Of a DNA stretch of 64,000 bases, positions 4,677 to 28,280 are shown piece by piece. Origin of the DNA: Bryobacterales bacterium (GTDB lineage Bacteria > Acidobacteriota > Terriglobia > Bryobacterales > Bryobacteraceae); assembly GCA_963764105.1 (NCBI GenBank), contig CAVXRP010000011.1:70851-134850 (forward strand), read 5' to 3'. A model generated the notes under the pieces. That model was given only the letters and a program-made list of their open reading frames with translations. It was not told where the DNA came from and ran no database searches. A program made the position numbers and the translations under genes. The first letter of the stretch is position 1. Each line of letters opens with the position of its first letter.

Positions 4677-5093
4677 GTGGATCGGCCACAGGTGTCTTTG
4701 AGCGCGAATCGGAGAGCTTTTTTGCAAGTGTCAGCCGCCGTTTTAGGCTTGGCTGGCGATAGCTTTGCCCGGCAGGAGGAAAAACCCAAAGAGAAGGATA
4801 AGACGGTTTACACGCCAGGCGGCGACGTGAAAGCGCCCAAGGTGGTTCACTATGTCGAGCCGCAATTTTCCAGCTCGTCAAAAGAGGCATTTGTCGAAGG
4901 CGTGGTCAAACTAAAGACCACCGTCACGCCAGACGGGCTACCCAGCGATATCGAAGTCACCAAAGGCTTGAATACCGAAGAAAACCAAAGCGCGGTGGAG
5001 GCTGTAAAGCAATGGCGCTTTCAGCCTGGCACCAAGGCCGGCGAACCGGTTCATGTCCGGGTCAGCATCGAAATTGCCTTCAATCTGATGTGA
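4677..5093 (+). CDS. TonB C-terminal domain protein
   Basis: GTG start, NRRAFLQVSAAVLG signal/anchor, and a C-terminal TonB-like fold (PKVVHYVEPQFS ... AVEAVKQWRFQPG). Confidence 0.7.
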   Translation: MDRPQVSLSANRRAFLQVSAAVLGLAGDSFARQEEKPKEKDKTVYTPGGDVKAPKVVHYVEPQFSSSSKEAFVEGVVKLKTTVTPDGLPSDIEVTKGLNTEENQSAVEAVKQWRFQPGTKAGEPVHVRVSIEIAFNLM

Positions 5094-12045: not shown

Positions 12046-14490
12046 TCAGCGACGAACTCGCCCGATAATCGGGCTCGAACTCGCCCCTAGCGCTCTCTTC
12101 AGCGCCTGCTGAGCTTCACTCAAATTTCGCATTGCAGACGCGTCAATCGGGTCCTTCTGTAAGGCGTTCCTCGACAGTTCAGTGACTTCGCGGCAGAGTT
12201 GCGCAGCCATCTCCTTGGCATGCATGGAGAGCTCCGCATCGATCGCCCAAATATCACACAGCGCCAATGCCGCGGCCGCTTCCGCATCCGACCTATCCTT
12301 TGAATAGAGATCCCGTAAGGTGGAAAGCCCAGCGCGTATTAGGCGCACTCCTTCTTGTGTTCGCCCGTCAAAAATCATAGATCTTCCCAGCGCCACTTGC
12401 GAAAATCCTTCTATGCTCTGCCAGCCTGGATCGCGAGTCCTTTGCGCGGCCAATTGTTTGCTTGCCAGTAACAAAGCTTGCTTTGCATGGGGCAGAGCCT
12501 CCTGGTACTCCTTGGTGTCCACCAGCAGCATGGAGAAATCGACTTCGGCCATCGCCAGATAGCCGGTGGCCAGTTCATTCGATTGCATTCCGTGTGGTCC
12601 ATGGAGGATAGTCAACGCTGCTTCAAAATGTTGCCTCGCCTCCCTATATCGCTGCATACGCCAGAGCGCGCCACCGGTCATTGCCTCCATGCTGGCAACG
12701 TAAGGAAATCCGATAGGATTCTCGATATTTGCATCGCGCCACCGCTTGAAGCGCGCTAAAGTCTCCAACTGCCCTTTGAGCCCTTCTTCACACTTTCCCG
12801 CATAAGGCGCTTGTTCGTTACCAACGTAGTCGGTCGCTAGATTCCAACAGGAATTAGCCGCGCGCAAGTAATTTAGACCCTGCGCGGGTCCGGCAAAGAT
12901 GGGCTGTGCCAGCGCGCACGCCTCTTGGTGGTAGGCAATGGCTTGGCGGAGTTCACCGGATTGAACCAGCAGACCGCCAAGCTGCGATAACAGGTAGGCT
13001 AGCTGTCCGCGATCCACAATGTCGCCAGTCTTGCCGAATACGTTTCTGCGCAATTGAACCGCTTTGATCATGTTTTTGCGAGCCTGTTCGCGATCAACGT
13101 CGGATTGCGCCATCATGCGTTGGGTGCGCGCGATCAGAAAATACGCCTGCGCCAGTTCGCGGGTCAGCGGCACATCGCCTTGCGCATCCGCCGACATACG
13201 GTCCAAATACTCAAGGTTTCGCTGGGCTATTAAATTTCGCGCGTCCGTTGTGCCCGGCAACGCTTCTAATTTACGATCGACTTCGCCCAGGTACGACTGC
13301 ACCAGCTTCCGTCCGTTTTGGTAGCGGCGTTCGGCGATCGCCGCCTGCGCCTGCGCCACCGCATACCCGTGCCATACCGCGAACGCGGCCAGAGTGATGG
13401 CTACAAACGAAACCGCCGCGATCCCTACGATTGCCCTTCGTCGTTTGACGAACTTGCCTATCCTGTAGAGCAGGGCATCAGGTCGTGCCCGAACCGGCAG
13501 CTGGAGCAAGTAGCGGTCCAGGTCGGCCGCAAACGCTTCAACCGTTCGGTAGCGCCGGCTGGGTTCGCGATGGAGCGCCTGCCGGAGGATGGTGTCCAAA
13601 TCACCCCGCAACGTGCGCTTTAGAGACTTGGCATTGGTTCGTCTTGCCTCCGCCGCCCCTGCTGCCACGGCCTCGCTGACCAGTCTTGGTTCTGTTTCGG
13701 TCAGCAGGCGAATCGCCTCGGGTGGCGGAAGGCCGGCCACCGGATGGGGAAGCGAGCCGCTCAACAGTTCGAATAGCAACGCGGCCAACGAGTATACGTC
13801 GCTTCCTGTGCCGATCGGTTCACGAGACACCTGTTCCGGACTGGCATAACTGGGGGTGAGTAGCTGGACCGTTAAAGCGCCGTCGTCTGGCGCGGTGTCC
13901 AGCCATTTCGCAATGCCGAAGTCGAGCAGCTTGGGATCGCCACTGGAAGTAACCAGAATGTTGTCTGGTTTCAAATCCCGATGGACGATCAGATTCTGGT
14001 GCGCACTCTGAACCGCTTCGCAAATCCGTATGAACAGCTGAATGCGCTCGCGCACACTCAACTTTCCCTCATCGCAGAATTCGTCGATCCGTCGCCCTTC
14101 CACATACTCCATGACAAGGTAAGGGCGGCCATCCTCTGTCACACCGCCATCCAGCAGGCGCGCGATTCCAGGATGATTCAAGCGCGCAAGCGTTTGGCGC
14201 TCGCGCACAAAACGCTTCAGCGCATCACCAGACCCGATGTGGCCCTGGACTACCTTGATGGCTACCTTCTGTGAATAAGCTGCATCGGCCCGTTCAGCGG
14301 AATAAACAGAACCCATGCCGCCATGGCCGATTAAATTGAGAATGCGATAGGAGCCCATCCGCCTGCCGGGCGGCAGCAAGTCGATAGCGTGTAAACTCCA
14401 TCCGATATTGGCGAACAACGCTTCCGATTGCGTCTCGAGCGTGAGCAACTCCTTAATCTCAGAGCGAAGCTGTGGTTCGTCGCCGCACAT
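12046..14490 (-). CDS. serine/threonine protein kinase with TM helix and C-terminal TPR-like sensor region
   Basis: Kinase motifs GHGGMGSVY, VAIKVV, HRDLKPDNIL, DFGIAK and SPEQ. TM segment IVGIAAVSFVAITLAAFAVW. A conserved-looking N-terminal segment continues in frame upstream to a CTG at 14580 (see findings). Confidence 0.9.
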   Translation of the reverse strand: MCGDEPQLRSEIKELLTLETQSEALFANIGWSLHAIDLLPPGRRMGSYRILNLIGHGGMGSVYSAERADAAYSQKVAIKVVQGHIGSGDALKRFVRERQTLARLNHPGIARLLDGGVTEDGRPYLVMEYVEGRRIDEFCDEGKLSVRERIQLFIRICEAVQSAHQNLIVHRDLKPDNILVTSSGDPKLLDFGIAKWLDTAPDDGALTVQLLTPSYASPEQVSREPIGTGSDVYSLAALLFELLSGSLPHPVAGLPPPEAIRLLTETEPRLVSEAVAAGAAEARRTNAKSLKRTLRGDLDTILRQALHREPSRRYRTVEAFAADLDRYLLQLPVRARPDALLYRIGKFVKRRRAIVGIAAVSFVAITLAAFAVWHGYAVAQAQAAIAERRYQNGRKLVQSYLGEVDRKLEALPGTTDARNLIAQRNLEYLDRMSADAQGDVPLTRELAQAYFLIARTQRMMAQSDVDREQARKNMIKAVQLRRNVFGKTGDIVDRGQLAYLLSQLGGLLVQSGELRQAIAYHQEACALAQPIFAGPAQGLNYLRAANSCWNLATDYVGNEQAPYAGKCEEGLKGQLETLARFKRWRDANIENPIGFPYVASMEAMTGGALWRMQRYREARQHFEAALTILHGPHGMQSNELATGYLAMAEVDFSMLLVDTKEYQEALPHAKQALLLASKQLAAQRTRDPGWQSIEGFSQVALGRSMIFDGRTQEGVRLIRAGLSTLRDLYSKDRSDAEAAAALALCDIWAIDAELSMHAKEMAAQLCREVTELSRNALQKDPIDASAMRNLSEAQQALKRALGASSSPIIGRVRR

Positions 14491-14576
14491 GGCTTCCAGA
14501 AAGCTCTGGCGGCGTTCTTCCGGCTGCTCTAGTGCCGCCTCCAGCAGCCCCCTGACTCGCGCCCAGTGCTCCGCCG

Positions 14577-15128
14577 TCAGGTCGTTGCTCCACGTCCGAG
14601 TTCCCGTGCCAACCAGAGTTTTGCTGAAGCCCAGTCTCGATCCGCCGTGGCTGGAGAGACGGCTAGGACTTCGGCCACCTGGGAGGAATTTAATCCGCCA
14701 AAAAGCCGCAGTTCGGCCACCCTTCCTTGGCGCGCATCCAGGCCGTGGAGTTCTTCCAATAAATGGTCGATGTGGAAAAAATCGGTAGCGGATTGATTCG
14801 CCAGAGATTCCACCAGGCTCAATGTTACTTGCTGAAGACCGCCGGCGCGTTTTTGAGCATTGCGCCGCTCGGCATGAGAGGCCAGGACGCGCCGCATCAA
14901 AGTTGCGGCCAGACCAAGTACCTGCGCCTCGTTCTGCCAGTCGACTTTGTGCTGCTGAAGAAGCCGCAAGTAAGCTTCGTGAACTAGCGCTGTCGGTTGC
15001 AAAGTATGGTTGCGCCGCTCATTTCGCAGGTAGCTCCGAGCCAAACGGCGCAGTTCGGAATAAAGCGCCGGAACCAATTCATCTAGCGATACTGGCGCGG
15101 GCCGCGCTGCCGGGTCTGTTTGTTCCAT
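14577..15128 (-). CDS. ECF-type RNA polymerase sigma factor (kinase-associated ECF family)
   Basis: 183 aa. Region 2-like ALVHEAYLRLL. Region 4 HTH ELRLFGGLNSSQVAEVLAVSPATADRDWASAKLWL. Immediately upstream of and overlapping the kinase gene. Confidence 0.88.
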   Translation of the reverse strand: MEQTDPAARPAPVSLDELVPALYSELRRLARSYLRNERRNHTLQPTALVHEAYLRLLQQHKVDWQNEAQVLGLAATLMRRVLASHAERRNAQKRAGGLQQVTLSLVESLANQSATDFFHIDHLLEELHGLDARQGRVAELRLFGGLNSSQVAEVLAVSPATADRDWASAKLWLARELGRGATT

Positions 15129-15263
15129 TGCGTTGGCCGCAGACCTTTGGTAGAAGTCGGCTTGCTACCAGTATATCGGCCGATTCGCCACTCGGCCATG
15201 GTCCAGGCGGCGCCGCAGTAGCGGTACCGCCTAGACCAGCGAACTATTGAGCCCCTATAAAAA

Positions 15264-15968
15264 TTACTGTTTGCGGAGCTTGCGAGTGGCAAGCCCAACG
15301 AGACTCAAACCCGCACCGAGCAACAAGTTGGTAGAGGGTTCCGGCGTGGCGGAAACCGGCGCGCCGCCCACTGCATCGATGTTTGTAAATGTTAGCGATC
15401 CTCCGGCAGCCGCATTTGAGAAATGAAGAATTCCCCCACTGATCGGTGCCGCATTGTTTGATGAAAAGCCGATGAAGTCGCTCGAATACTGGTTCAAGAA
15501 CGCCAGCAACGTGGCTTGGTCGCCAGCTCCCAGTGCGGTCACGATGGACGCTTCTGAAGTTCCGCCAAAAACTTGACTCCAGGTCTCGGTACCCAGGGCC
15601 GTGTTATAGACACCCTCATTCACCGCAACGCTGACGCCGGTGCTTGAATAGAGGCCCAACGCCGTGGCGACACCGCTCGATATGAATTCCGGAACGGTCT
15701 CGGTGATTGGGAAAGTACCGCCGGGAATGAAGTGCGTTTGGCCGGTAAATGGGTTGGTGATCCCCACCCCTTTGGTGCCCGTTAAGGTCCCGCCATTGGC
15801 GTCGTAAACGAAGTAATCGTCATATTGGTTACTGGTAAGTGAAATGCTTCCGGTAAAGGTAGTCTGTGGACTAACCGCTGAGGCAGACAATATCCCCGCG
15901 CTGGCAAAGCTCAGCGCGACTAGGACACGAAAAGATTTTGACAAAATGTTTCCTCCATGGAAAAGCAA
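15264..15968 (-). CDS. PEP-CTERM sorting domain protein
   Basis: Signal peptide plus C-terminal TPEPSTNLLLGAGLSLVGLATRKLRKQ (PEP motif, TM helix, basic tail). Confidence 0.8.
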   Translation of the reverse strand: MLFHGGNILSKSFRVLVALSFASAGILSASAVSPQTTFTGSISLTSNQYDDYFVYDANGGTLTGTKGVGITNPFTGQTHFIPGGTFPITETVPEFISSGVATALGLYSSTGVSVAVNEGVYNTALGTETWSQVFGGTSEASIVTALGAGDQATLLAFLNQYSSDFIGFSSNNAAPISGGILHFSNAAAGGSLTFTNIDAVGGAPVSATPEPSTNLLLGAGLSLVGLATRKLRKQ

Positions 15969-16590
15969 TTAAACGTTAGGAGACTGGCTCCATACGATAA
16001 CGTCGAAATCGCATCCATGAATCCTCACAGCGAAGTACTAGCCGAGCGCCTCCGAGTACTGGGGTACTTTTGCTTCCGGCGCCTGCTGGCAAACCCTCAT
16101 CCCCCCTGTGAATCCGAGGAATCGTGGCTGCTCTTGCCTGCGCTGCGCCACCACCGCCGAACGCGCCTTCCAACGCGAACTCCGTCTCCTTCAACAGTTC
16201 TGTAAAGCCCACCCCTCGGTTGAAAGCCGCCCCGCTGCCCCCGCTTCGAACCCGCAGAACCCCATCCCAAACCTCGGGCTCGCCTCACCGTCGTGGGCGA
16301 AGATCCAACTAGCTAGCCCCACAGGCCTTACCCTGCTTCTCGAGAACATTGGCGGCATCAAAAATAGGGTCCCACGGCCGTATTGCCCTCCAGCCAAATC
16401 GCTGCCCGGCCGACCGCCGCCGCATGGTGAGCATTCTTGTCGGCAGGCAGCGTTCGGGTGGCCCGGGGCTTGTAATCCTGTGCTCATCCGTTCGGCGCCG
16501 AGAAAAATGAGTGACATTGTGTTAGCCTGTAAGTCGTTCCTAAGAACACGCTAAGTCCGCTTAGTTTCGCGGACCGGTAAGACCCAAGTC

Positions 16591-18069
16591 ATGTCGCTGC
16601 AAGTTTTTTTGCAAGCTCAAATCTCCGGCACTGAACGCTTCCTGACCGCTCCCTCCGCTGAGCAGCAGGATTCCATGGCGGATTTAAGTGGGCGTTGCGC
16701 CTGGCTGACGCTCGCCTGCGAAGTTCTACCGCGCGCGCTCCTTGCTGAACTGAAACTTTCGCCGATGCTGCTGGGTTCGAGCAGCGCCGAGCAGTTTCTG
16801 CTGGTGCTGGCGGAAGAAGACGTCGCGCGCGCCAACGATTTCCTGACGCGCGCGGCTGAAGAAATGGCCAAGCTGTCCGGCAGCACGCTGCGGCTGGTTT
16901 GGGCGAGCACCGAAAATCTGGGCGCTTGGCCCATTGCGCGTAAGCGGCTGGATGACGAGTTGCTCGCGAAGACGGTCGCGCCTCTGGCGGCAAGCGCCAA
17001 CGACTGGACGCAAGCCTTCGCGCCTTTCCTGCCGGCCGATACGGAAAAGGGCGACGCATATTTTGAAAAGTTCGGACTGGGCTTGGCCACTGCGCGCCAA
17101 GTGGGCTGGTCTGCTGATCAGCCGGCGCATCTTGTGTGGGACGGCGGACAATATAGCTGGACGCTCAAAGAACAATCGGGCGGTGAGGACGATGGCATTC
17201 TGTTCCCGCGCCGCTTTGCCATGGATGAGAACGGCAGCCATCCCAGTACGTTGCCTGAGCTGGCCGAGCGCCCTAGCGGCGCGCACAAGTGGGGTATTTT
17301 GCGCGGCGATGTGGATCATTTCGATCTGCAATTGCGGCGTGTCGCGTCGATTGAAGAACATATTCACCTTTCGGTATTGTTCAAAGAATTTTTCGCAGGC
17401 GAACTGGCGGTGCTGTGTACGCTGCCGGAGTTCTGGCGCAAAGTGACGATTCTCTATCGCGGTGGGGAAGATTTCGCGGTGGTCGGCACCTGGGATGCAC
17501 TGGTGCCGTTAGCACGCGAAATACAGCGACTGTTTGAAAAGTTCGTGGAACAAAATACCGCCATGTTTCCGAGTCTGGAAGCGCGCAGTATCAGCATGGC
17601 TATGGCGATTGCGCCCGATGCGGCCAGTCCGGCCGGCGCGATTTTTCAGGAGGCAGGCGTGCAGTTGCAAGCCGCCAAAGCGAGTGAGGTCGGCGGCTTC
17701 CGGCTTTTCGACCGCACGCTCGAGTGGAAGCGTTTAGGCGATGCCGAAGAGTTGAAGAGCAGCTTGATGCGTTTGGTGCGGGATTTTCGTTTTTCGCCCG
17801 ACTATGTGCATGATCTAGCTTCGGTGTATCGTGAATCGTTTTCGGCGCGCGCCCTGCGCCGCGGCAAAGGGATGAAAATCGATAAGCCGTGGCGCACGTT
17901 TATGCGCCTGTCAACGGTGATTCCGCAAGGGCGCGGCAAGGAATTGAATAACGTCCGGAACGCCGTGATCACGAATTTGGTGGGCAAGAAAACGGCTGGG
18001 TTGAAATTGCGACCTTCGGGCCGGGTGGGATTGGAGTGGGCGCGGCTGGCAGCCGGCGCCGATGAATAA
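16591..18069 (+). CDS. cas10: miniaturised Cas10/Csm1-like large subunit (Palm1 + Palm2, no HD domain, no Zn finger)
   Basis: Palm1-like LQAQISGTERFL, LSGRCAWLTL and GSSSAEQFLLVL. Palm2 WGILRGDVDHFD and ILYRGGEDFAVVGTWD (GGDD-equivalent), then SISMAMAIA. First gene of a csm-type operon. Only 492 aa, with an in-frame TAA 13 codons upstream of the ATG. Confidence 0.75.
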   Translation: MSLQVFLQAQISGTERFLTAPSAEQQDSMADLSGRCAWLTLACEVLPRALLAELKLSPMLLGSSSAEQFLLVLAEEDVARANDFLTRAAEEMAKLSGSTLRLVWASTENLGAWPIARKRLDDELLAKTVAPLAASANDWTQAFAPFLPADTEKGDAYFEKFGLGLATARQVGWSADQPAHLVWDGGQYSWTLKEQSGGEDDGILFPRRFAMDENGSHPSTLPELAERPSGAHKWGILRGDVDHFDLQLRRVASIEEHIHLSVLFKEFFAGELAVLCTLPEFWRKVTILYRGGEDFAVVGTWDALVPLAREIQRLFEKFVEQNTAMFPSLEARSISMAMAIAPDAASPAGAIFQEAGVQLQAAKASEVGGFRLFDRTLEWKRLGDAEELKSSLMRLVRDFRFSPDYVHDLASVYRESFSARALRRGKGMKIDKPWRTFMRLSTVIPQGRGKELNNVRNAVITNLVGKKTAGLKLRPSGRVGLEWARLAAGADE

Positions 18070-18103: not shown

Positions 18104-18661
18104 ATGCCTGAAACAGAAGAAAAGAAACCCGAGGAGCGTAAAGGCGGCGACCGGCCAGCGCGCGAAGGGCGACCCAGTGGTCCGGGCGGCAGTGGCCCGC
18201 GTGGCGAGAATCGCGGCCCTGGCGGCGGCGATCGGGGCCGAGGCCCGGGAGGCGACCGGGGCGGTCCCGGTGGCGATCGCGGGCGCGGCGGACCGGCTGG
18301 CGACCGGCGCGGCGAAGGTCCGCCCGACATGGATATCGAGAAGTTGATTGCCGATCCGTTATATCTCGACAATCAGGCGCACGTGGTGGTCAGCCGCATG
18401 CGCGACATGGATTCCGGCACGAAGAGCCAGTTGCGCCGGCTCTATAACGCGGTGCGCCGTGCCACGCGAGCGCCCGAGAGCGAGCGCCAGCATGAATTTG
18501 TCATGGTGCGGGCGCGTTTGGCGTACACCATCGCGCGCCATTCCTTGCGCAGTCTAGACGCTCTGGAGCGTCTGCTGCTGCAAGTCACGCGCAAAAACGA
18601 TACGCGGGGCTACGAACGCTTCCGCGATCTGTTTGAAGCCATCATTGCTTATAACGAATAG
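18104..18661 (+). CDS. csm2: Cas11/Csm2-like small subunit with N-terminal Gly/Arg/Pro-rich extension
   Basis: The C-terminal ~105 aa are helical with Csm2-like landmarks (TKSQLRRLYNAV, RARLAYTIARH, FRDLFEAIIAYNE). The N-terminal ~75 aa are GGDRGRGPGGDRGGPGGDRGRGGPAGDRRG-type low complexity. AAGGA lies 9 nt before the ATG. Confidence 0.7.
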   Translation: MPETEEKKPEERKGGDRPAREGRPSGPGGSGPRGENRGPGGGDRGRGPGGDRGGPGGDRGRGGPAGDRRGEGPPDMDIEKLIADPLYLDNQAHVVVSRMRDMDSGTKSQLRRLYNAVRRATRAPESERQHEFVMVRARLAYTIARHSLRSLDALERLLLQVTRKNDTRGYERFRDLFEAIIAYNE

Positions 18662-18676
18662 GGTTGGGTTTTATTC

Positions 18677-19510
18677 ATGAGTTCTCACACGGCGGACACC
18701 GCACTTACATTTTTAGGAAAGCTGATTTTAGAAGGCGAGATTCATTGCCAGACCGGCCTGCATATTGGCGCCGGTAAAGGATCGCTGGAGATCGGCGGCG
18801 CCGATAATCCGGTGGTCAAGGACGCCTTCGGCATTCCGTACATTCCGGGCAGTTCCCTGCGCGGCCGCTTGCGCGCTCTGCTCGAACAAACCATGGGCCT
18901 GGCGGTGCCCGGCGAATTGGTTTATTTGTCTAAGCGCAAAGGGCAGGAAGTGCGCATCCATCAAAGCGATCGGGCCGATGACGAAATCTGCGTTTTGTTC
19001 GGCCGCAATCCCGGACGGGTGGATAGAGTAACCGGCGACCCTTTGGAAGGCGCCACGGCTACGCCGGCGCGTCTCACGGTTTTCGACGCGCCGCTGGTGG
19101 TGGATAGCATCACACCGCAGATGCGCGAAAACCTGGACGACGAATTGACCGAAGTGAAAAGCGAAAACGCGGTGGACCGCATCACCTCGCAGGCCAACCC
19201 GCGCACGCTCGAACGCGTGCCCGCCGGTGCGCGCTTCAAGTTCCGCATGGTGCTCGATATCCTCTGCGAAGAAGACAAGCCGCTAGTGGCGCGCGTGGCG
19301 GAAGGTTTGCGCCTGCTTGAAGACGATGCGTTGGGCGGCGGCGGCAGCCGTGGCAACGGCCGTGTCGCGTTTGCGGGTTTGAGCCTGTTGTGGCGCGGCA
19401 AAGATTATTACGCCAAGGGCGCGGCCGAAGAGAGCCTGCTCGCCGCTGCCGATCTGGCGGCGTTCCAGCAATTGGCCAGCGCCGGCGACTTCAGCGCGAA
19501 GCTAGCCTAA
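18677..19510 (+). CDS. csm3: Csm3 (Cas7 RAMP backbone subunit)
   Basis: Aligns by eye along its length with staphylococcal Csm3: TGLHIGAGKGSLEIGGADNPVVKD, IPGSSLRGRLRALLE, TEVKSENAVDRITSQANPRTLERVPAGARF, LEDDALGGGGSRGNGRV. The Asp of GGADNPVV corresponds to the RNA-cleaving Asp. Confidence 0.9.
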   Translation: MSSHTADTALTFLGKLILEGEIHCQTGLHIGAGKGSLEIGGADNPVVKDAFGIPYIPGSSLRGRLRALLEQTMGLAVPGELVYLSKRKGQEVRIHQSDRADDEICVLFGRNPGRVDRVTGDPLEGATATPARLTVFDAPLVVDSITPQMRENLDDELTEVKSENAVDRITSQANPRTLERVPAGARFKFRMVLDILCEEDKPLVARVAEGLRLLEDDALGGGGSRGNGRVAFAGLSLLWRGKDYYAKGAAEESLLAAADLAAFQQLASAGDFSAKLA

Positions 19511-19511
19511 A

Positions 19512-20897
19512 ATGCAGCCGGCAGTTTTGATACGGCTCCGTCCGCTCGGCGCTTGGCGCTTTGGACCGGCGGACGGCGGCCACGACCAGGTAGACACGCT
19601 CTATCGCAGCGACCGCTTGTATTCCGCGGTGACGCTCGCCATGCAGCGCTTGGGCCTGCTGGACGAGTGGCTGGACGCTACCGCGCGCGCCGCCAAACCG
19701 GCGCTGGTTTTCAGCTCGCTGTTTCCATTTCAAGGCGACACGCTCTATGCCATTCCGCCTGCCACTTTGTGGCCGCCGCCACTGGCGCTGCTCACTACGC
19801 CCAGTCCAGTTTTCTTGACCAAGATCCGCTGGAAGACCGCGCATTTCGTGCCGCTGAGTGTGATCGATTCTTTAATCACCGGCCAGCCGATTCTGGCCGA
19901 TCAATGGCTGCCCGACCCCGAAAGCGCCTGCCTGCTGCGGCGCGACCGGCCCAGTTCAAGTCCGTTTCGCGTCGTCATGCGCAGCACTGCGGCGGTCGAC
20001 CGCCTCACGCATTCGAGCGATGAAATCAAGCCTGTCGCTTGCGTCGAGTTCGAGCAAAATGCCGGCTTGTGGACTGTGGCGCGCTTTGCCGGTGCAGAGG
20101 AAGAGCAGGTGTGGAGCAGCCGATTGCAAGCGGCCCTGCGGCTGTTAAGCGATTCCGGTTTTGGCGGCGGACGCAGCCGAGGTTGGGGCCAGACGCAAGA
20201 GGCCGATTTCCAGAGCGGTTCTTGGCCTGCGATTCTGTTGCCGAAGTTAGGCCGCCTCTTGCGCAACGCCCCGCCAGCCGAGCTTGAACATGGTGCTGGG
20301 GCGCTCTATTGGCTGCTCTCGCTTTATTCGCCCGCGGCCGTCGATAAAGTTGATTGGACCGGCGGAAACTATTCTCTGACCTTACGGGGCGGCCGCGTGG
20401 ACAGCAATTCGGGTCAAGGCGCTACCAAGAAGAACGTACGCATGGTAAGCGAAGGCTGCGTGTTGGCCGCGGGCGATGAACCGGTGGGTGTCGCGGTCGA
20501 TGTAGCTCCCGACGGCTTCGCGCATCCCGTTTACCGCTCGGGTTTGGCCTTGGCTTTGCGGTTGCCAGTGGTTGAAGTACAACAGAAACCGATAGAGGAG
20601 CCCTCTACCGAGGAAGCCGTGATCGAACAGTTCGTTGAACCGACGGTGCATGAACCTGAAACGCCGATGGAACCGCCGGCAGCTGTCGAAGAGCCCGCTC
20701 CCCCATCCCCGCCAGAACAGGAGCCGCCGACAATCGAACAGGCAGCTGAGCCCGCAGTGCCCGGTCCCGAGATCCGTGAGCCCGAAGCGCCAGTGGAACC
20801 ACCGCCAGCTATAGAAGAGCCAACTCCGCCATCGCCGCCGGAACAGGAGCCGCCGCTTGAGTCTCCACCTCTGGAGGAGCTGCCGCATGAAGTATAA
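19512..20897 (+). CDS. csm4: Csm4 (Cas5 RAMP) with ~115-aa Pro/Glu-rich C-terminal extension
   Basis: LRPLGAWRFG, YRSDRLYSAVTLA, FSSLFPF, SDSGFGGGRSRGWGQ and HPVYRSGLALALRLPV (canonical Csm4 C-terminus), followed by the extra PE-rich tail. Starts 1 nt after the csm3 stop. Confidence 0.85.
   Translation: MQPAVLIRLRPLGAWRFGPADGGHDQVDTLYRSDRLYSAVTLAMQRLGLLDEWLDATARAAKPALVFSSLFPFQGDTLYAIPPATLWPPPLALLTTPSPVFLTKIRWKTAHFVPLSVIDSLITGQPILADQWLPDPESACLLRRDRPSSSPFRVVMRSTAAVDRLTHSSDEIKPVACVEFEQNAGLWTVARFAGAEEEQVWSSRLQAALRLLSDSGFGGGRSRGWGQTQEADFQSGSWPAILLPKLGRLLRNAPPAELEHGAGALYWLLSLYSPAAVDKVDWTGGNYSLTLRGGRVDSNSGQGATKKNVRMVSEGCVLAAGDEPVGVAVDVAPDGFAHPVYRSGLALALRLPVVEVQQKPIEEPSTEEAVIEQFVEPTVHEPETPMEPPAAVEEPAPPSPPEQEPPTIEQAAEPAVPGPEIREPEAPVEPPPAIEEPTPPSPPEQEPPLESPPLEELPHEV
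20652..20855 (+). repeat. imperfect tandem duplication (126-bp period) inside the csm4 3-prime end
   Basis: The 78-bp cores 20652-20729 and 20778-20855 encode EPETPMEPPAAVEEPAPPSPPEQEPP and EPEAPVEPPPAIEEPTPPSPPEQEPP. Confidence 0.8.
20873..20879 (+). promoter_or_regulatory. Shine-Dalgarno GGAGGAG for csm5
   Basis: GGAGGAG lies 7 nt upstream of the ATG at 20887, inside the csm4 3-prime end. Confidence 0.5.
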
Positions 20898-22029
20898 AGT
20901 GACTGCGCTCACGCCGCTCCTGGTCGGCGACGGCCGCGAACTCTCGCCCATCGACTACATGGTCTGGAAAGACCAGGTCAACGTACTCGATCAGACGCGC
21001 ATTTTCAAGCTGCTTTCGCGCGGCCCTCGCCTGGATGGTTATCTGGCCCAGCTGCGCAAGGCAAGCAAACTCGATTTCGCATCCTGGGGCGGCTTCGCGC
21101 AAAACTTCTCGCAGCGCCGCATTCCCTTTGAAACGCCCGATGCCACCGCAATTTGGAATAACGCGCCGCCGGAAGCACTCTTCATCCCCACCTTCGCCGC
21201 CAATTATCGCGGCCCTTATCTGCCCGCTTCGGCGCTCAAGGGCGCGTTGCGCAGCGGCCTGGTCTTTTCGCGCTGGTCTTTGAGCACCATGGAGCGAGCC
21301 GCCGCGGCGATGGAAGGCGACCGCTTGCCGCGCCGCGTGAGCGACAGTGCCGAAGGGAGCGCGCAAGCATCGCAAATGCGCGTCTTGGCTGTGGCCGATA
21401 GCGAACCCATTTCCACCAGCGCCTTCAAAGTGTATGTATCGCGGACGGCATCGCTCGATTTTCGGCAAGCGGGCGATCCGCAGCTAGTTTGGAAAGTGGC
21501 CGGCCGCGGAAGTGTCGCTGCGCAACGCGTGAACGAAGCTACGCCGGTATTTGCCGAAATGGCGATACCCGGAACCGAATTCGCCGGCCGATGCGATGAG
21601 CGCACATTTTTGGAGCAGCCCGATATGGCGCGTAGCCTGGGCTGGCGTAGCCCGCCCAACATTGACGCGATTGTCACAGCTGCCAATCAGTTTGCCGCCT
21701 CGCAATTGGAAATGCAAGCGCGTTATGCGCAAGCTACCGGCCTGCCGCAAGTGCAGGAGACGGTCGCGCATTTGCAATCCGAGTTGCAAGCCGCGCAAAC
21801 CAACCCGCTCTCCTGTCTCTTATGTTTGGGTTGGGGTGGCGGCTTTCTGAGTAAAGCCTGTTTTCACGATACAGATTCGGAAGCCTACCGCAAAATATTG
21901 CGCTCTGTGCCCTCCATTAGCAGGGCGATTCGCGACAAGGTGCCCTTTCCAAAGACTCGCCGGTTGATATTTGCAGGGGGTAAGCCGGCCAGCGTTCCCG
22001 GGTGGGTCCGCTTGCATGTGGAAGCATAG
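20887..22029 (+). CDS. csm5: Csm5 (Cas7-like RAMP)
   Basis: MKYKVTALTPLLVGDGRELSPIDYMV, PYLPASALKGALRSGL and C-terminal LGWGGGFLSK (G-rich loop). ATG at 20887 is preferred over the upstream start at 20857. Overlaps csm4 by 11 nt. Confidence 0.85.
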   Translation: MKYKVTALTPLLVGDGRELSPIDYMVWKDQVNVLDQTRIFKLLSRGPRLDGYLAQLRKASKLDFASWGGFAQNFSQRRIPFETPDATAIWNNAPPEALFIPTFAANYRGPYLPASALKGALRSGLVFSRWSLSTMERAAAAMEGDRLPRRVSDSAEGSAQASQMRVLAVADSEPISTSAFKVYVSRTASLDFRQAGDPQLVWKVAGRGSVAAQRVNEATPVFAEMAIPGTEFAGRCDERTFLEQPDMARSLGWRSPPNIDAIVTAANQFAASQLEMQARYAQATGLPQVQETVAHLQSELQAAQTNPLSCLLCLGWGGGFLSKACFHDTDSEAYRKILRSVPSISRAIRDKVPFPKTRRLIFAGGKPASVPGWVRLHVEA

Positions 22030-22191: not shown

Positions 22192-23100
22192 ATGCAAAGC
22201 GCTATTTACAACCCATATTTCGGGTTTAGTGAGAACCCATTTAACATCAGTCCGGATCCGGAGTTCTTGTATCGCAGCCCGCAGCACGAAGAGGCGTTGG
22301 CGAACTTGATCTATGGCGTCCGGAGCCGCAAAGGTTTTATTGTTTTAACGGGTGAAGTCGGTACCGGCAAGACAACCATGCTCGAGTGTTTGCGCGATTA
22401 CCTGGACACCATGCGCACCGAGTTTGCGTTTATTTTTAATTCTCGCTTAACGCCGGACCAGTTCTTTGAAATGATGGCGTTCGATTTCGATTTGGAGTGC
22501 GACCGCAAATCGAAAACGGATGTGCTGTTTGCTTTGAACACGTTGCTGATCAAGCAGGCCGAAAAAGGCCGCACTTGCGTGCTGTTGGTGGATGAAGCTC
22601 ACAACTTGGAGTGGGACGTTTTGGAGGAAATTCGTTTGCTGGGCAATCTGGAAAATCGCGGTGGTAAGCTGCTGCAGATTATCCTGGCGGGGCAACCGGA
22701 ATTGGACCGCAAGCTGGACGCACCGAATCTGCGGCAACTGAAACAGCGCATTGTTTTGCGTTGCAACTTGAATCCGCTTGAGCCGGACGAAGCAGTGGCG
22801 TACATTGAGACGCGCATGGCGCGTGCGGGCATGCCGGAGCAAACGGTCTTTTCGCCCGAACTGCTGGAAGAGATTTACCGGCGCGCGCGGGGTATCCCGC
22901 GCGTGATTAACCTGATCTGCGATAACCTGTTGGTGACCGCTTTCGCCATGGAGCGCAAAACTGCAACTGTAGAAATGCTGGATGAGGTTTGCCAAGATCT
23001 GCGTCTGGAGTGGCCGGGTTCTGGCCGGCGCGGGCGTTCGCGCTTCAACGTCGACGAAGAACACCAGTTTCCCGACGCCATTACCGCGCGTGGCGATTAG
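22192..23100 (+). CDS. ExeA/GspA-like AAA ATPase (PEP-CTERM-locus type secretion ATPase family)
   Basis: N-terminal YNPYFGFSENPFNISPDPEFLYRSPQHEEAL, Walker A GEVGTGKTT, Walker B VLLVDEAHNL, and QIILAGQPEL. Confidence 0.85.
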   Translation: MQSAIYNPYFGFSENPFNISPDPEFLYRSPQHEEALANLIYGVRSRKGFIVLTGEVGTGKTTMLECLRDYLDTMRTEFAFIFNSRLTPDQFFEMMAFDFDLECDRKSKTDVLFALNTLLIKQAEKGRTCVLLVDEAHNLEWDVLEEIRLLGNLENRGGKLLQIILAGQPELDRKLDAPNLRQLKQRIVLRCNLNPLEPDEAVAYIETRMARAGMPEQTVFSPELLEEIYRRARGIPRVINLICDNLLVTAFAMERKTATVEMLDEVCQDLRLEWPGSGRRGRSRFNVDEEHQFPDAITARGD

Positions 23101-23487
23101 ACGCTCGGCGATATGTTTCTGCGCCTGTGCCACTGCCTGCTGAGCCGACCGCCCAGATCTGAACCCGTAGCTGCTTTCAGAAAACGTCCGGTCCCACCGC
23201 CTCTGGAGAACCCGCATCACCGACGGTGCTGAATCAATCGATCCAGCACCGTCGGAATGCCCGCGCCACCCTTATTGGCCTTTAACCCGCTGCCCTGCTT
23301 TTTTCAGGTTTTCTCGCTCCCTACTTCCTCCATCCATCGATTCGTGGCTGGCTGGGCTTTCGGGGTTATTCACCGTCGAGAGCGATTCGATCTCCTCGCT
23401 CCCCGCTTCGCGGGCTTCACCCGCTGGCGTGGAAGGGAATTCCAGTTCGACCTGAATACTCTGCTTCATTTCGCTCCTGAGATGCAT
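23101..23487 (-). pseudogene. group II intron reverse transcriptase remnant (5-prime part only, frameshifted, internally deleted)
   Basis: Minus-strand pieces in three frames: RENLKKAGQRVK, ANKGGAGIPTVLDRLIQ, and VLQRRWDRTFSESSYGFRSGRSAQQAVAQAQKHIAE (RT0-RT2 motifs). Homology stops abruptly at 23100, where the ATPase gene ends. Confidence 0.65.
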
Positions 23488-23860
23488 GCCCTACTTGCCG
23501 CTCCTCTCGTTCGGGCTTTCCAACCGTCTCCTGTGCACAGACAGTCCCAGGGGCTAAACTCTGCTTTGCGAGGGCTTTGGGGAGAGCGAAACCACTGTCC
23601 CGAGGCCGTTTTCACGTCCACCAGGATCGCCGCCGCCCGCCGTTCACCCCCATAAAGATCTTGTCGTGCGCCAAGCCGAAGAACCATGACCGCATTTTGC
23701 CTACTGACGATATTGGGTCGAAACTTCGAACAGGAAAAACCGTCCTGCGGCCGGGAAGAAAAGTCTTAGGGGCTGATGTAGGGATATATAGCCCAGCTCA
23801 GGTCTTTTCGGCCACCTCGGCGTTAAGAAATTCCAAGAGCTCACGAACGAACAACTCGAA

Positions 23861-26829: not shown

Positions 26830-28280
26830 ATGCTGACTGACATGATTCATTTGATTACCGGCACGGCCGATCTGATTGCCGCCTTTTTGTTCCTCTACGG
26901 CCTGAAGCGCATGTCCTCACCGGTGTCCGCACCGTCGGGCATTCGCGTTGCCGGCTTGGGAATGCTGCTGGCTATTTTCGCCAACATGCTCGATGTCTTC
27001 ACAGTGGATGCCGCCGCTAAACCTCATCGCACCGTCAACATCGCTCTAGCCGCGACGGCTTTGCTGCTGGGCGCCTCCGTCGCCTGGTTCAAGGGCAGGA
27101 CCGTTGCCATGACAGAGATGCCACAGATGGTGGCCATCTATAACGGTTTGGGCGGCGGCGCCGCCGGGGCGATTGCGGCGGTCGAGTTGTTCGGGAACAA
27201 GACGCACGGCGCAAGCCAACTCGTAGTGACGCTGCTGGGTGGACTGATTGGCGGCGTTTCGTTATCGGGTTCAGTCATTGCCTGGGCGAAGCTCGACGAG
27301 ATTCTGAAGAAGCCACTGCGCTTTCCCGGTCAGCGGTTCCTGAACGCGATCGTTTTTCTCGCCGCGCTTACCGTGGCCGGATACATTGTCTTCACCGCCC
27401 TCTACGGCGGCGCCACACTTTTGCCCATCAGCTCTATTCTGTGGATATTTTTCGGCCTTACCCTGCTGTCTGGCATTGTAACGACACTGCCGATTGGCGG
27501 TGCTGATATGCCTGTGGTGATCTCGATTTATAACGCCGCCACAGGTTTGGCGGTAGGTTTCGACGGCTATGTCCTCGGAGACCCGGCGTTGATGATCGCG
27601 GGCATGGTCGTGGGCGCCGCCGGAACACTGCTTACCGTCCTTATGGCTAAGGCTATGAATCGATCGGTGAGTAACGTGCTGTTTTCGAACTTCGGAGAAG
27701 TCAGCAAAAAGAAGCAGGGCAAGATCGTCGGCAGCGAGAAACCGGTAGAAGCCAGCGATGCCGGGATCTTTATGCGCTACGCGGCGAGTGTCATCTTGAT
27801 GCGGGATACGGCCTCGCCGTAGCTCAGGGGCAGGAGAAACTTTACGACTTTGTGAAGCTATTGCAGGCGGCGGGCGTGAAAGTGAGATTCGCCATTCACC
27901 CCGTGGCGGGACGCATGCCGGGACAGATGGACGTACTGCTCGCGGAAGCCGGCGTTCCGTACGATCTCATTTTCCAGTTAGATGCCATCAACGACGACTT
28001 CGCGACCACGGACGTGGCGCTCGTGATTGGCGCCAACGACGTGGTGAATCCGGCAGCGCGCGCGGACAAGTCATCGCCCATCTTTGGCATGCCCATTCTG
28101 AACGCCGATAAGGCAAAGAAGGTTTATGTCGTGAAGCGCGGCCAGGGTGAAGGTTACTCCGGTATTGAAAACCAGCTTTTCTACGACGAGAACTGCTCCA
28201 TGGTTTACGGCGATGCGCAGGCCGTGCTGGTGCAGATGATTGAAGCAGTGAGAGGGCTCGGCTCGGCCGTAGCCGCTTAG
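26830..28280 (+). pseudogene. pntB: NAD(P) transhydrogenase subunit beta (PntB), split by a frameshift (or sequencing indel)
   Basis: The TM half (26830-27822) ends ..AASVILMRDTASP*. The NADP(H) domain (27852-28280) contains IHPVAGRMPGQMDVLLAEAGVPYD. Restoring one C at about 27803 (ATGCGGG to ATGCCGGG) gives the expected ..VILMPGYGLAVAQGQEKLYDFVKLL... Confidence 0.85.

Follow-up and report, generated by a model that had tools for sequence, protein, structure and literature searches.

A short Cas10 of Csm1 type without HD domain and zinc knuckles, probably part of a III-A-like Csm effector complex in Acidobacteriota

The stretch of DNA analysed here is a window of 64,000 nucleotides from a Bryobacterales bacterium (assembly GCA_963764105.1, contig CAVXRP010000011.1, positions 70,851 to 134,850 of the forward strand). 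On its plus strand it contains an open reading frame (ORF) of 492 residues (16591–18069), which is a short form of Cas10/Csm1 that consists of Palm1, an inter-palm region without a zinc finger, Palm2 and a D4 domain, and that has no HD domain. Judged from homology and conservation, it is likely that this ORF encodes a functional Cas10/Csm1 whose cyclase is probably active, and which would form the large subunit in a Csm effector complex of III-A-like type (Cas10-Csm2-Csm3-Csm4-Csm5). The protein matches the Pfam family Cas10-Cmr2_palm2 (PF22335; E 1.7e-15), and its residues 215–435 match positions 490–703 of the 753 positions of the NCBIfam Csm1 equivalog TIGR02578, at a score of 115.6 bits that lies below the cutoff of 170. 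An AlphaFold2 model made from 49 homologues (predicted template modelling score 0.80) matches III-A Csm1 chains over its full length (Foldseek E ~1e-11, TMq 0.64), the result of a structural check that an earlier reading of the DNA letters (below, the sequence-only reading) had suggested. The ratio of non-synonymous to synonymous substitution rates (dN/dS) of cas10 relative to close relatives is 0.05–0.09. By these matches and this ratio, it is not a chance product of GC-rich DNA.

The start of the gene can be considered secure, since all related loci share the N-terminal sequence MS(L/V)Q(V/I)F and the 5' side bears a promoter-like element that is conserved. The ORF begins with ATG and ends with TAA, and an in-frame TAA (16552–16554), situated 13 codons 5' of the ATG, confirms the earlier claim that it cannot extend upstream. 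The possibility of a split gene, with a separately encoded HD or zinc-finger module that is fused to Cas10 in orthologues, was also checked. The same-frame upstream ORF (16108–16554) is conserved only among the nearest relatives, finds no match in Pfam, NCBIfam or PADLOC, and does not resemble the HD domain in a profile comparison (hhalign probability 0.1%). The genes 5' of cas10 vary from locus to locus, and no N-terminal fusion was seen in any member of the short family. On these grounds a split HD gene was rejected.

The domain structure was derived from a profile-profile comparison (hhalign) of the short family with its ten nearest full-length Csm1 proteins (767–800 residues), all of which have the N-terminal HD motif and nine of which have two CxxC motifs. 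The profiles align with a probability of 100% (E 1e-44), columns 9–489 of the short family falling on positions 259–783 of the 790 positions of canonical Csm1. The HD domain (~258 residues) is absent, and no HD dipeptide was found in the N-terminal region. The proposal that the protein starts directly at Palm1 is therefore borne out, including the equivalence of its motifs. The Palm1 core (residues ~1–100; 16591–16890) contains ISGTERFL (11–18), LSGRCAWL (32–39) and an LLGSSSAEQFLLVL hairpin, the Palm1 equivalents in S. epidermidis Cas10 being SGIQDFI, LRSRSFYL and LLYTGGGHAYLLV. With the family profile, residues 7–80 align to residues 255–327 of that protein (the start of Palm1), and residues 209–326 to its residues 502–620 (Palm2 with GGDD).

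Cysteines occur only at residues 36, 43 and 276 of the short Cas10, and no CxxC motif is present in it or in any other short-family member examined. Where canonical Csm1 has its two CxxC knuckles, the alignment leaves the short family with a gap of ~26 residues, so the treble-clef zinc finger is gone, as had been stated before. The zinc finger is not universal in Csm1, since the canonical-length relative P0267 also has no CxxC motif. In Palm2, the segment GILRGDVDHFD (residues 235–245) aligns to the metal-binding strand of solved Csm1 structures, in agreement with its earlier identification. It includes GDVD (residues 239–242; 17305–17316) of the first Palm2 metal-binding strand, of which D242 is invariant and D240 is found in nearly all members. 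The GGED sequence (residues 291–294, GGEDF being 291–295; 17461–17472) is aligned to the GGDD cyclase loop of the solved structures. The alignments agree on this point, and the homology of the two loops, on which the sequence-only reading depended, is thereby supported.

The helical C-terminal domain D4 (residues ~346–492; 17626–18066) is complete, because the profile alignment extends to its last helix (VALEWARL versus VAVRWAExL), reaching template position 783 of 790; in the AlphaFold2 model the D4 helices span residues 348–488. A truncated C-terminal domain had been described, with only about 110 residues after SISMAMAI. This was a miscount, as 152 residues follow SISMAMAI (333–340) and 197 follow GGEDF. 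The description of a reduced Cas10 thus stands for the loss of the HD domain and the zinc finger and fails for the C-terminus. After subtraction of the HD domain, 532 aligned positions (790 - 258) remain in canonical Csm1, compared with 489 in the short family. By this arithmetic, loss of the HD domain would explain nearly all of the size reduction and deletion of the zinc knuckles most of the remainder, and the protein is best viewed as a Csm1 minus HD and zinc knuckles, rather than as a generally shrunken Cas10.

More than 1,400 homologous clusters were found in a word-indexed search. The best 120 of these are all 458–527 residues in length, most of them 487–500, and the named taxa among them are Bryobacteraceae, Acidobacteriaceae or metagenome-assembled genomes of Acidobacteriota. 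In an exhaustive search of 1.84 billion representatives, the short form (450–495 residues) persists down to about 35–36% identity, below which the matches switch abruptly to canonical HD-bearing Csm1 proteins that align only over Palm2 and D4. This pattern suggests a distinct and old clade, mainly of Acidobacteriota, whose ancestor presumably lost the HD domain together with both zinc knuckles. The family is absent from both the plasmid and the phage collections searched. A published census of type III loci excluded Cas10 proteins of less than 500 residues (PMC11229360), and the clade is not covered by it as its lengths fall just under this filter.

The cyclase motif at residues 291–294 was inspected in 96 related loci, in all of which the GD[VI]D strand is kept. 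GGDD is found in 69 loci and GGED in 16; GGDG, EGDG or AGDG are found in nine (including, with the GGDG loci, one that had been read as GGDN), and GGDE or GGND in two. Among 22 deep representatives, GGDD is kept in 13 and the motif is clearly degenerate in five (GVAG, SNDG, GASD, GLGE and GIEG). To judge from these alignments, GGED is not a signature of the family, most of which has GGDD, but a conservative allele carried by a minority, and the Cas10 of the window is probably cyclase-competent. The likeness of GGEDF to GG(D/E)EF cyclases, noted in the sequence-only reading, holds as an analogy only: the Pfam scan returned PF22335 alone, with no match to a GGDEF domain at E <= 0.1. GGED is also listed among Cas10 variants in loci with known effectors, and in the same census, of 1,113 loci, the HD domain is present in only 39% of the Cas10 proteins and absent from 61% (PMC11229360). 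Since the HD-less state is that of the majority and GGED loops are already documented, the reduction of this Cas10 is largely ordinary and in itself adds little. The interest lies rather in its setting, i.e. a large clade which behaves as a conserved chromosomal operon with an unusually conserved Cas11 and Cas7 and with a recurrent ATPase.

Downstream of cas10, and likewise on the plus strand, the genes of the other four Csm subunits could be identified. The csm2 gene (Cas11, 185 residues; 18104–18661) matches Pfam Csm2_III-A (8.6e-10) and, above its cutoff, TIGR01870. The csm3 gene (Cas7, 277 residues; 18677–19510) scores 204 bits against TIGR02582 (cutoff 90), and csm4 (Cas5, 461 residues; 19512–20897) matches Pfam Csm4_C and scores 128 bits against TIGR01903, above the cutoff. 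The csm5 gene (20857–22029 as the listed ORF, from a TTG at 20857) encodes about 380–390 residues, its start being uncertain, and scores 55.6 bits against TIGR01899 (cutoff 38.3) and 9.6e-23 for Csm5 in PADLOC. The order csm2 to csm5 after cas10, with all genes intact, is found in all 38 loci with enough sequence; cas10 is obligately linked to csm2–5. All genes of the module are under strong purifying selection, with dN/dS values of 0.01–0.05 for csm2, csm3 and the ATPase gene described below.

Csm2 is composed of two very different parts. Residues 1–75 (18104–18328) form a low-complexity N-terminal extension rich in Gly and Arg, with RGG/GDR repeats. In 77 related loci the extension has a median length of 73 residues, with ~35% Gly and ~20% Arg; it occurs in the main clade and in the 47% clade, and the locus L015 has a Pro/Gln/Glu-rich stretch instead. 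We know of no Gly/Arg-rich tails of this kind in Cas11 proteins, and the extension could serve in RNA binding or condensation. The C-terminal 110 residues (18329–18661), on the other hand, are 86–100% identical across loci whose Cas10 proteins are 46–95% identical, with a dN/dS of 0.01–0.03. Cas11 is usually among the fastest-evolving subunits of type III complexes, and a Csm2 held at 86–100% while Cas10 drops to 46% appears particularly odd. In Csm3, the catalytic Asp (D43, nucleotides 18803–18805) lies within EIGGADNPVVK, a sequence that is identical in 66 of the 70 readable loci, the Asp itself being kept in all 70. Csm4 has a repetitive, Pro/Glu-rich C-terminal tail of ~100 residues (20574–20897) which overlaps the annotated csm5 start, and the number of repeats in this tail varies by locus, with coding repeats of 24, 39 and 111 nucleotides in L005, L012 and L001, respectively.

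Comparison with III-A Csm1 proteins of known structure, for example those of S. epidermidis (7uzw_F), E. italicus (9g9a_A), T. onnurineus (4uw2/6mua) and S. thermophilus (6ifn), shows the same order of Palm1, Palm2 and D4, a homologous metal-binding strand and GGDD loop, and the same csm1-to-csm5 operon order. The best structural and profile matches of the short Cas10 are all III-A Csm1 proteins. Differences are the missing HD domain, the deleted CxxC knuckles, a degenerate Palm1 GDISGIQ motif, and an identity of only ~23% at profile level, together with the score below the NCBIfam Csm1 cutoff. Unlike III-A loci, the module has no array, cas6 or csm6 beside it, as seen in 98 flanks for arrays and in the annotated neighbourhoods for genes. 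By its effector gene content, gene order and nearest Cas10 relatives the module is of III-A type, the place of its Cas10 in the III-A clade being tentative.

The short Cas10 shares the lack of an HD nuclease with other cyclase-positive Cas10 proteins, such as the III-B Cmr2 of Vibrio metoecus (PMC8682760) and most of those of III-D, which, like the short Cas10, would be expected to act by RNA cleavage and nucleotide signalling. Those systems have arrays and an effector (NucC or a CARF protein), whereas none is present in the annotated neighbourhoods of this module. Reductive evolution, the lack of an adaptation module and the array-less state of the III-G locus are points of similarity with the reduced subtypes of the 2025 classification (PMC12669027). 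However, both III-G and subtype III-H have been described as having an apparently active HD domain, an inactivated Palm and a Cas7 in which the catalytic Asp is missing (PMC12669027), which is the reverse of the situation here, where HD is absent, the Palm motifs are retained and the Csm3 Asp is kept in all readable loci. In III-H, Cas11 replaces the C-terminal domain of Cas10, whereas here D4 is intact and csm2 is a separate gene. In III-I, a Cas7-11i occurs with a Cas10 that has no N-terminal cyclase domain, whereas here Cas7, Cas5, Cas11 and Csm5 are separate and both Palm domains are present. The comparison with reduced Cas10 variants that had been recommended earlier thus shows that the module fits neither III-G nor III-H nor III-I, as defined in their publication. 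A full-text literature search found no description of this module of Acidobacteria or of an association of Cas10 with ExeA/GspA; most papers in subscription journals lay outside its coverage, and an earlier description is possible.

The gene downstream of csm5 (22192–23100, plus strand) encodes a GspA/ExeA-like AAA+ ATPase of 302 residues, which matches Pfam AAA_22 (1.3e-26) and has the Walker A motif GEVGTGKTT and the Walker B motif LLVDEAH. This ATPase adjoins csm5 in 28 of the 38 loci, and both of two ATPase homologues picked independently for a reciprocal check sit in a Csm module. Loci with a degenerate cyclase motif still carry it. In the ATPase-less loci an alternative effector was sought, and only housekeeping genes were found in its place. 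The spacer between csm5 and the ATPase gene is conserved only among close relatives. With GspA/ExeA, the XrtA/PEP-CTERM ATPases and the loaders MuB, TnsC and Cdc6 the protein shares the AAA_22 fold, an N-terminal YxxFFG..PF motif and both Walker motifs. It scores 295 bits against the XrtA/PEP-CTERM-associated family TIGR03015, below the cutoff of 324, and it matches the PHROG 'DNA transposition protein' (4.4e-26). Unlike the GspA/ExeA and TIGR03015 ATPases, it comprises these 302 residues only, without a membrane or peptidoglycan-binding part, and its linkage is to the Csm operon rather than to genes for secretion or transposition. No sequence homologue was found in the PDB. The AlphaFold2 model is weak (predicted local distance difference test score 62), its nearest folds being Cdc6/Orc1, MuB and TnsC at template modelling (TM) scores of 0.3–0.4. 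As the model is of low confidence and these scores are low, the likeness to Cdc6, MuB and TnsC is only a hint of nucleic-acid-dependent oligomerisation. A further ORF of 132 residues, 3' of the ATPase gene (23257–23655), has no match in Pfam, NCBIfam, PADLOC or PHROG and no counterpart in the related loci, and may not be a real gene.

Upstream of cas10, a promoter-like element TGTGTTAGCCTG (16518–16529, plus strand) fits the extended -10 pattern TGnTAnnnT and is located ~72 nucleotides 5' of the ATG. Of 89 loci, 48 have the exact motif TGTG[CT]TAG[GC]CTG, and most of the remaining main-clade loci have a sequence close to it; the variable position of the TGTGTTAGCCTG-type motif coincides with the 'n' of TGn. 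The 46–47% clade and the loci L015 and L016 have an analogous TGnTAnnnT-GAG..TTCG arrangement closer to the ATG, so that an extended -10-like element precedes cas10 in all clades. A scan with the sigma-70 consensus gave nothing at 16518–16529. Its assignment as a promoter is an inference from conservation, and a promoter conserved at such evolutionary depth suggests conserved regulation. On its 3' side a conserved leader stretch follows, beginning with CGTTC (16518–16574 region), and in main-clade loci the 5' leader includes a GC-rich hairpin, GTCCGC-TTAGTTTC-GCGGAC (16555–16574, plus strand), with one compensatory pair (T-A versus C-G at stem position 2). RNAalifold predicted no consensus structure for the conserved block 5' of cas10, and Rfam gave no match to it; a crRNA-like guide gene at this place was rejected. 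Because the extended -10 pattern recurs across clades, the block is read as promoter plus leader.

The flanks of the module point to its history. In the annotated flanks housekeeping genes were found and no defence island. Between the deeply diverged loci L003 and L015, Cas10 is 35% identical, as is Csm4, and Csm5 is 37% identical; the corresponding values are 78% for the Csm2 C-terminal domain, 76% for the ATPase and 66% for Csm3. Both loci, as well as L009 and L097, have a gene for an unannotated protein of ~1,130 residues and a VWA gene 5' of cas10, and in L003 and L015 a GFO_IDH_MocA oxidoreductase gene also flanks the module downstream. The identities of these shared flanking proteins between L003 and L015 are 49% (~1,130-residue protein), 70% (VWA) and 63% (GFO_IDH_MocA). 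Such shared flanks across a very deep divergence may indicate where in the chromosome the module was originally located. Because of this synteny, the slow evolution of Csm2, Csm3 and the ATPase, the lack of plasmid and phage matches and the conservation of the promoter, the module appears to be a vertically inherited chromosomal operon, which is an unusual profile for a defence system.

If the module acts as its parts suggest, an RNA-loaded Csm complex would bind complementary RNA, and the bound RNA would be cut by Csm3, as may be expected since the catalytic Asp is kept in every readable locus. Target binding would activate the Palm pocket of Cas10, leading to the synthesis of cyclic oligoadenylate or a related nucleotide as a signal, and GGED is expected to be compatible with catalysis. 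No DNase activity of Cas10 is expected, because the HD domain is absent. Beside the module there is no gene for a guide RNA source or for a signal receiver; these would have to be supplied in trans, or else be non-canonical.

Several observations weigh against the assignment as a functional Csm complex with an active cyclase. First, the canonical Palm1 sequence GDISGIQ reads AQISGTE in the Cas10 of the window. Secondly, the second Asp of GGDD is lost in ~10% of the loci (GGDG, EGDG, AGDG) with retention of the protein, and in several deep lineages the motif is fully degenerate though the protein is kept. As the motif has been lost repeatedly from a protein that was kept, cyclase activity seems to be dispensable in at least some lineages. 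Finally, no CRISPR array could be identified within 10 kb of the module in 98 loci (~1.1 Mb of flanks), nor in the 64-kb window, when each of these sequences was scanned with Tandem Repeats Finder, a repeat search and a custom k-mer chain scan. The seven annotated neighbourhoods likewise showed neither cas6 nor cas1/2 nor a CARF/SAVED gene. The repeat candidates that were found proved to be coding tandem repeats (the Csm2 RGG region, the Csm4 Pro/Glu tail and a Pro-rich ORF in L015) and were dismissed. In a single locus, L012, a cluster of direct repeats resembling repetitive extragenic palindromes or miniature inverted-repeat transposable elements lies ~5 kb 5' of cas10 (4760–5090; 30–38-nucleotide units with CCCGTGAATCC cores); with its irregular spacing and overlapping units it is not CRISPR-like and was also rejected.

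Two explanations of this array-less setting survive, and we regard them as about equally likely. According to one, which is a real possibility without being the probable outcome, the Csm complex has been domesticated, i.e. recruited to serve the host, for instance by controlling host transcripts through RNA guidance or RNA binding, with a non-CRISPR or fixed guide, with Cas10 as scaffold or regulator and with the ATPase as partner. The array-free flanks of the 98 loci and their housekeeping rather than defence-island character agree with it. So does the persistence of the VWA and GFO_IDH_MocA synteny at 35% Cas10 identity, with the Csm2 C-terminal domain, Csm3 and the ATPase evolving as slowly as these flanks (63–70%). 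The low dN/dS of Csm2, Csm3 and the ATPase (0.01–0.05), the absence from plasmid and phage collections and the conservation of the promoter-like element across clades point in the same direction, as does the repeated loss of the cyclase motif without loss of the module, the degenerate loci even keeping the ATPase. However, most members still have GGDD or GGED and the catalytic Asp of Csm3, as defence systems do, and no candidate for a fixed guide RNA was found, the sole conserved non-coding element reading as promoter plus leader with an empty Rfam result. The complete genome of Candidatus Solibacter usitatus is reported to have no CRISPR array and three clustered cas genes, Acid_0892 and Acid_0893 as well as Acid_0895 (PMC3174227). 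The spacing of these genes fits csm2, csm3 and csm5, which would favour domestication, but cluster look-ups and locus-tag searches could not confirm that they belong to the module.

The other explanation is conventional III-A interference in trans, in which crRNAs and Cas6 would come from another locus and CARF/SAVED effectors from elsewhere in the genome, and it too seems quite possible while falling somewhat short of probable. The module has the full set of catalytic features of a standard HD-less Csm complex, and there are precedents. In 133 type III loci the Cas10 is cyclase-positive but nuclease-deficient and an effector in cis is lacking, and sharing in trans has been discussed (PMC11229360); for the equally array-less III-G loci, the use of crRNAs in trans has been proposed (PMC12669027). 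It is, on the other hand, unusual for defence genes to be inherited vertically, to keep their synteny and to evolve as slowly as Cas11 and Cas7 do here; the annotated flanks hold no cas or defence gene, no array lies in the 98 flanks, and the family is absent from mobile-element collections. In addition, one complete Bryobacterales genome is reported without any CRISPR array (PMC3174227), its link to the module being inferred.

That the gene is a decaying remnant or mis-called, i.e. either a truncated pseudogene that outlasted a lost CRISPR locus or a longer gene whose start was wrongly assigned, is extremely improbable: the genome paper did read the Solibacter cas genes as leftovers (PMC3174227) and the Csm1 score of 115.6 bits is below the NCBIfam cutoff of 170, but this reading is refuted by selection and conservation, namely the dN/dS of 0.05–0.09, a length that stays at 450–500 residues across the more than 1,400 clusters, even where identity falls to 35%, the invariant N-terminus with an in-frame stop 5' of it and a conserved promoter, and five intact csm genes in 38 of 38 loci.

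Returning to domestication, we tentatively propose, as a more specific and slightly more doubtful version of it, that a III-A-derived Csm complex (a Cas10 without HD domain and zinc finger, an RGG-tailed Cas11, Cas7, Cas5 and Csm5) has been domesticated by Acidobacteriota as a vertically inherited, housekeeping-like operon without array or Cas6. Such a complex would either take its guide from a non-CRISPR source or bind to RNA directly, often together with the MuB/TnsC/Cdc6-like ATPase, and would serve transcript surveillance or regulation rather than adaptive immunity. Such a non-defence role of the module is a plausible hypothesis. If the module does function without CRISPR arrays, it would be a natural class 1 effector exapted for a host function, and non-defence roles of type III systems would become directly testable in culturable Acidobacteria. 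If crRNAs are instead borrowed in trans, the module would still be a minimal form of Csm that is widespread among abundant bacteria of the soil.

Some other genes of the window lie outside the module. On the minus strand 5' of it are genes for a PEP-CTERM-motif protein (15264–15968), an extracytoplasmic function (ECF) sigma factor (14577–15128) and a Ser/Thr kinase with TPR repeats (12046–14490), the last of which matched PADLOC PD-T4-6 and mad6 only via its kinase domain; these neighbours (12046–15968) are not conserved in other loci. Further on, PntB, the beta subunit of transhydrogenase, is encoded by two adjoining ORFs (26830–27822 and 27852–28280), which match positions 4–306 and 326–455 of Pfam PNTB, and could represent a natural split, a frameshift or stop, or an assembly error.

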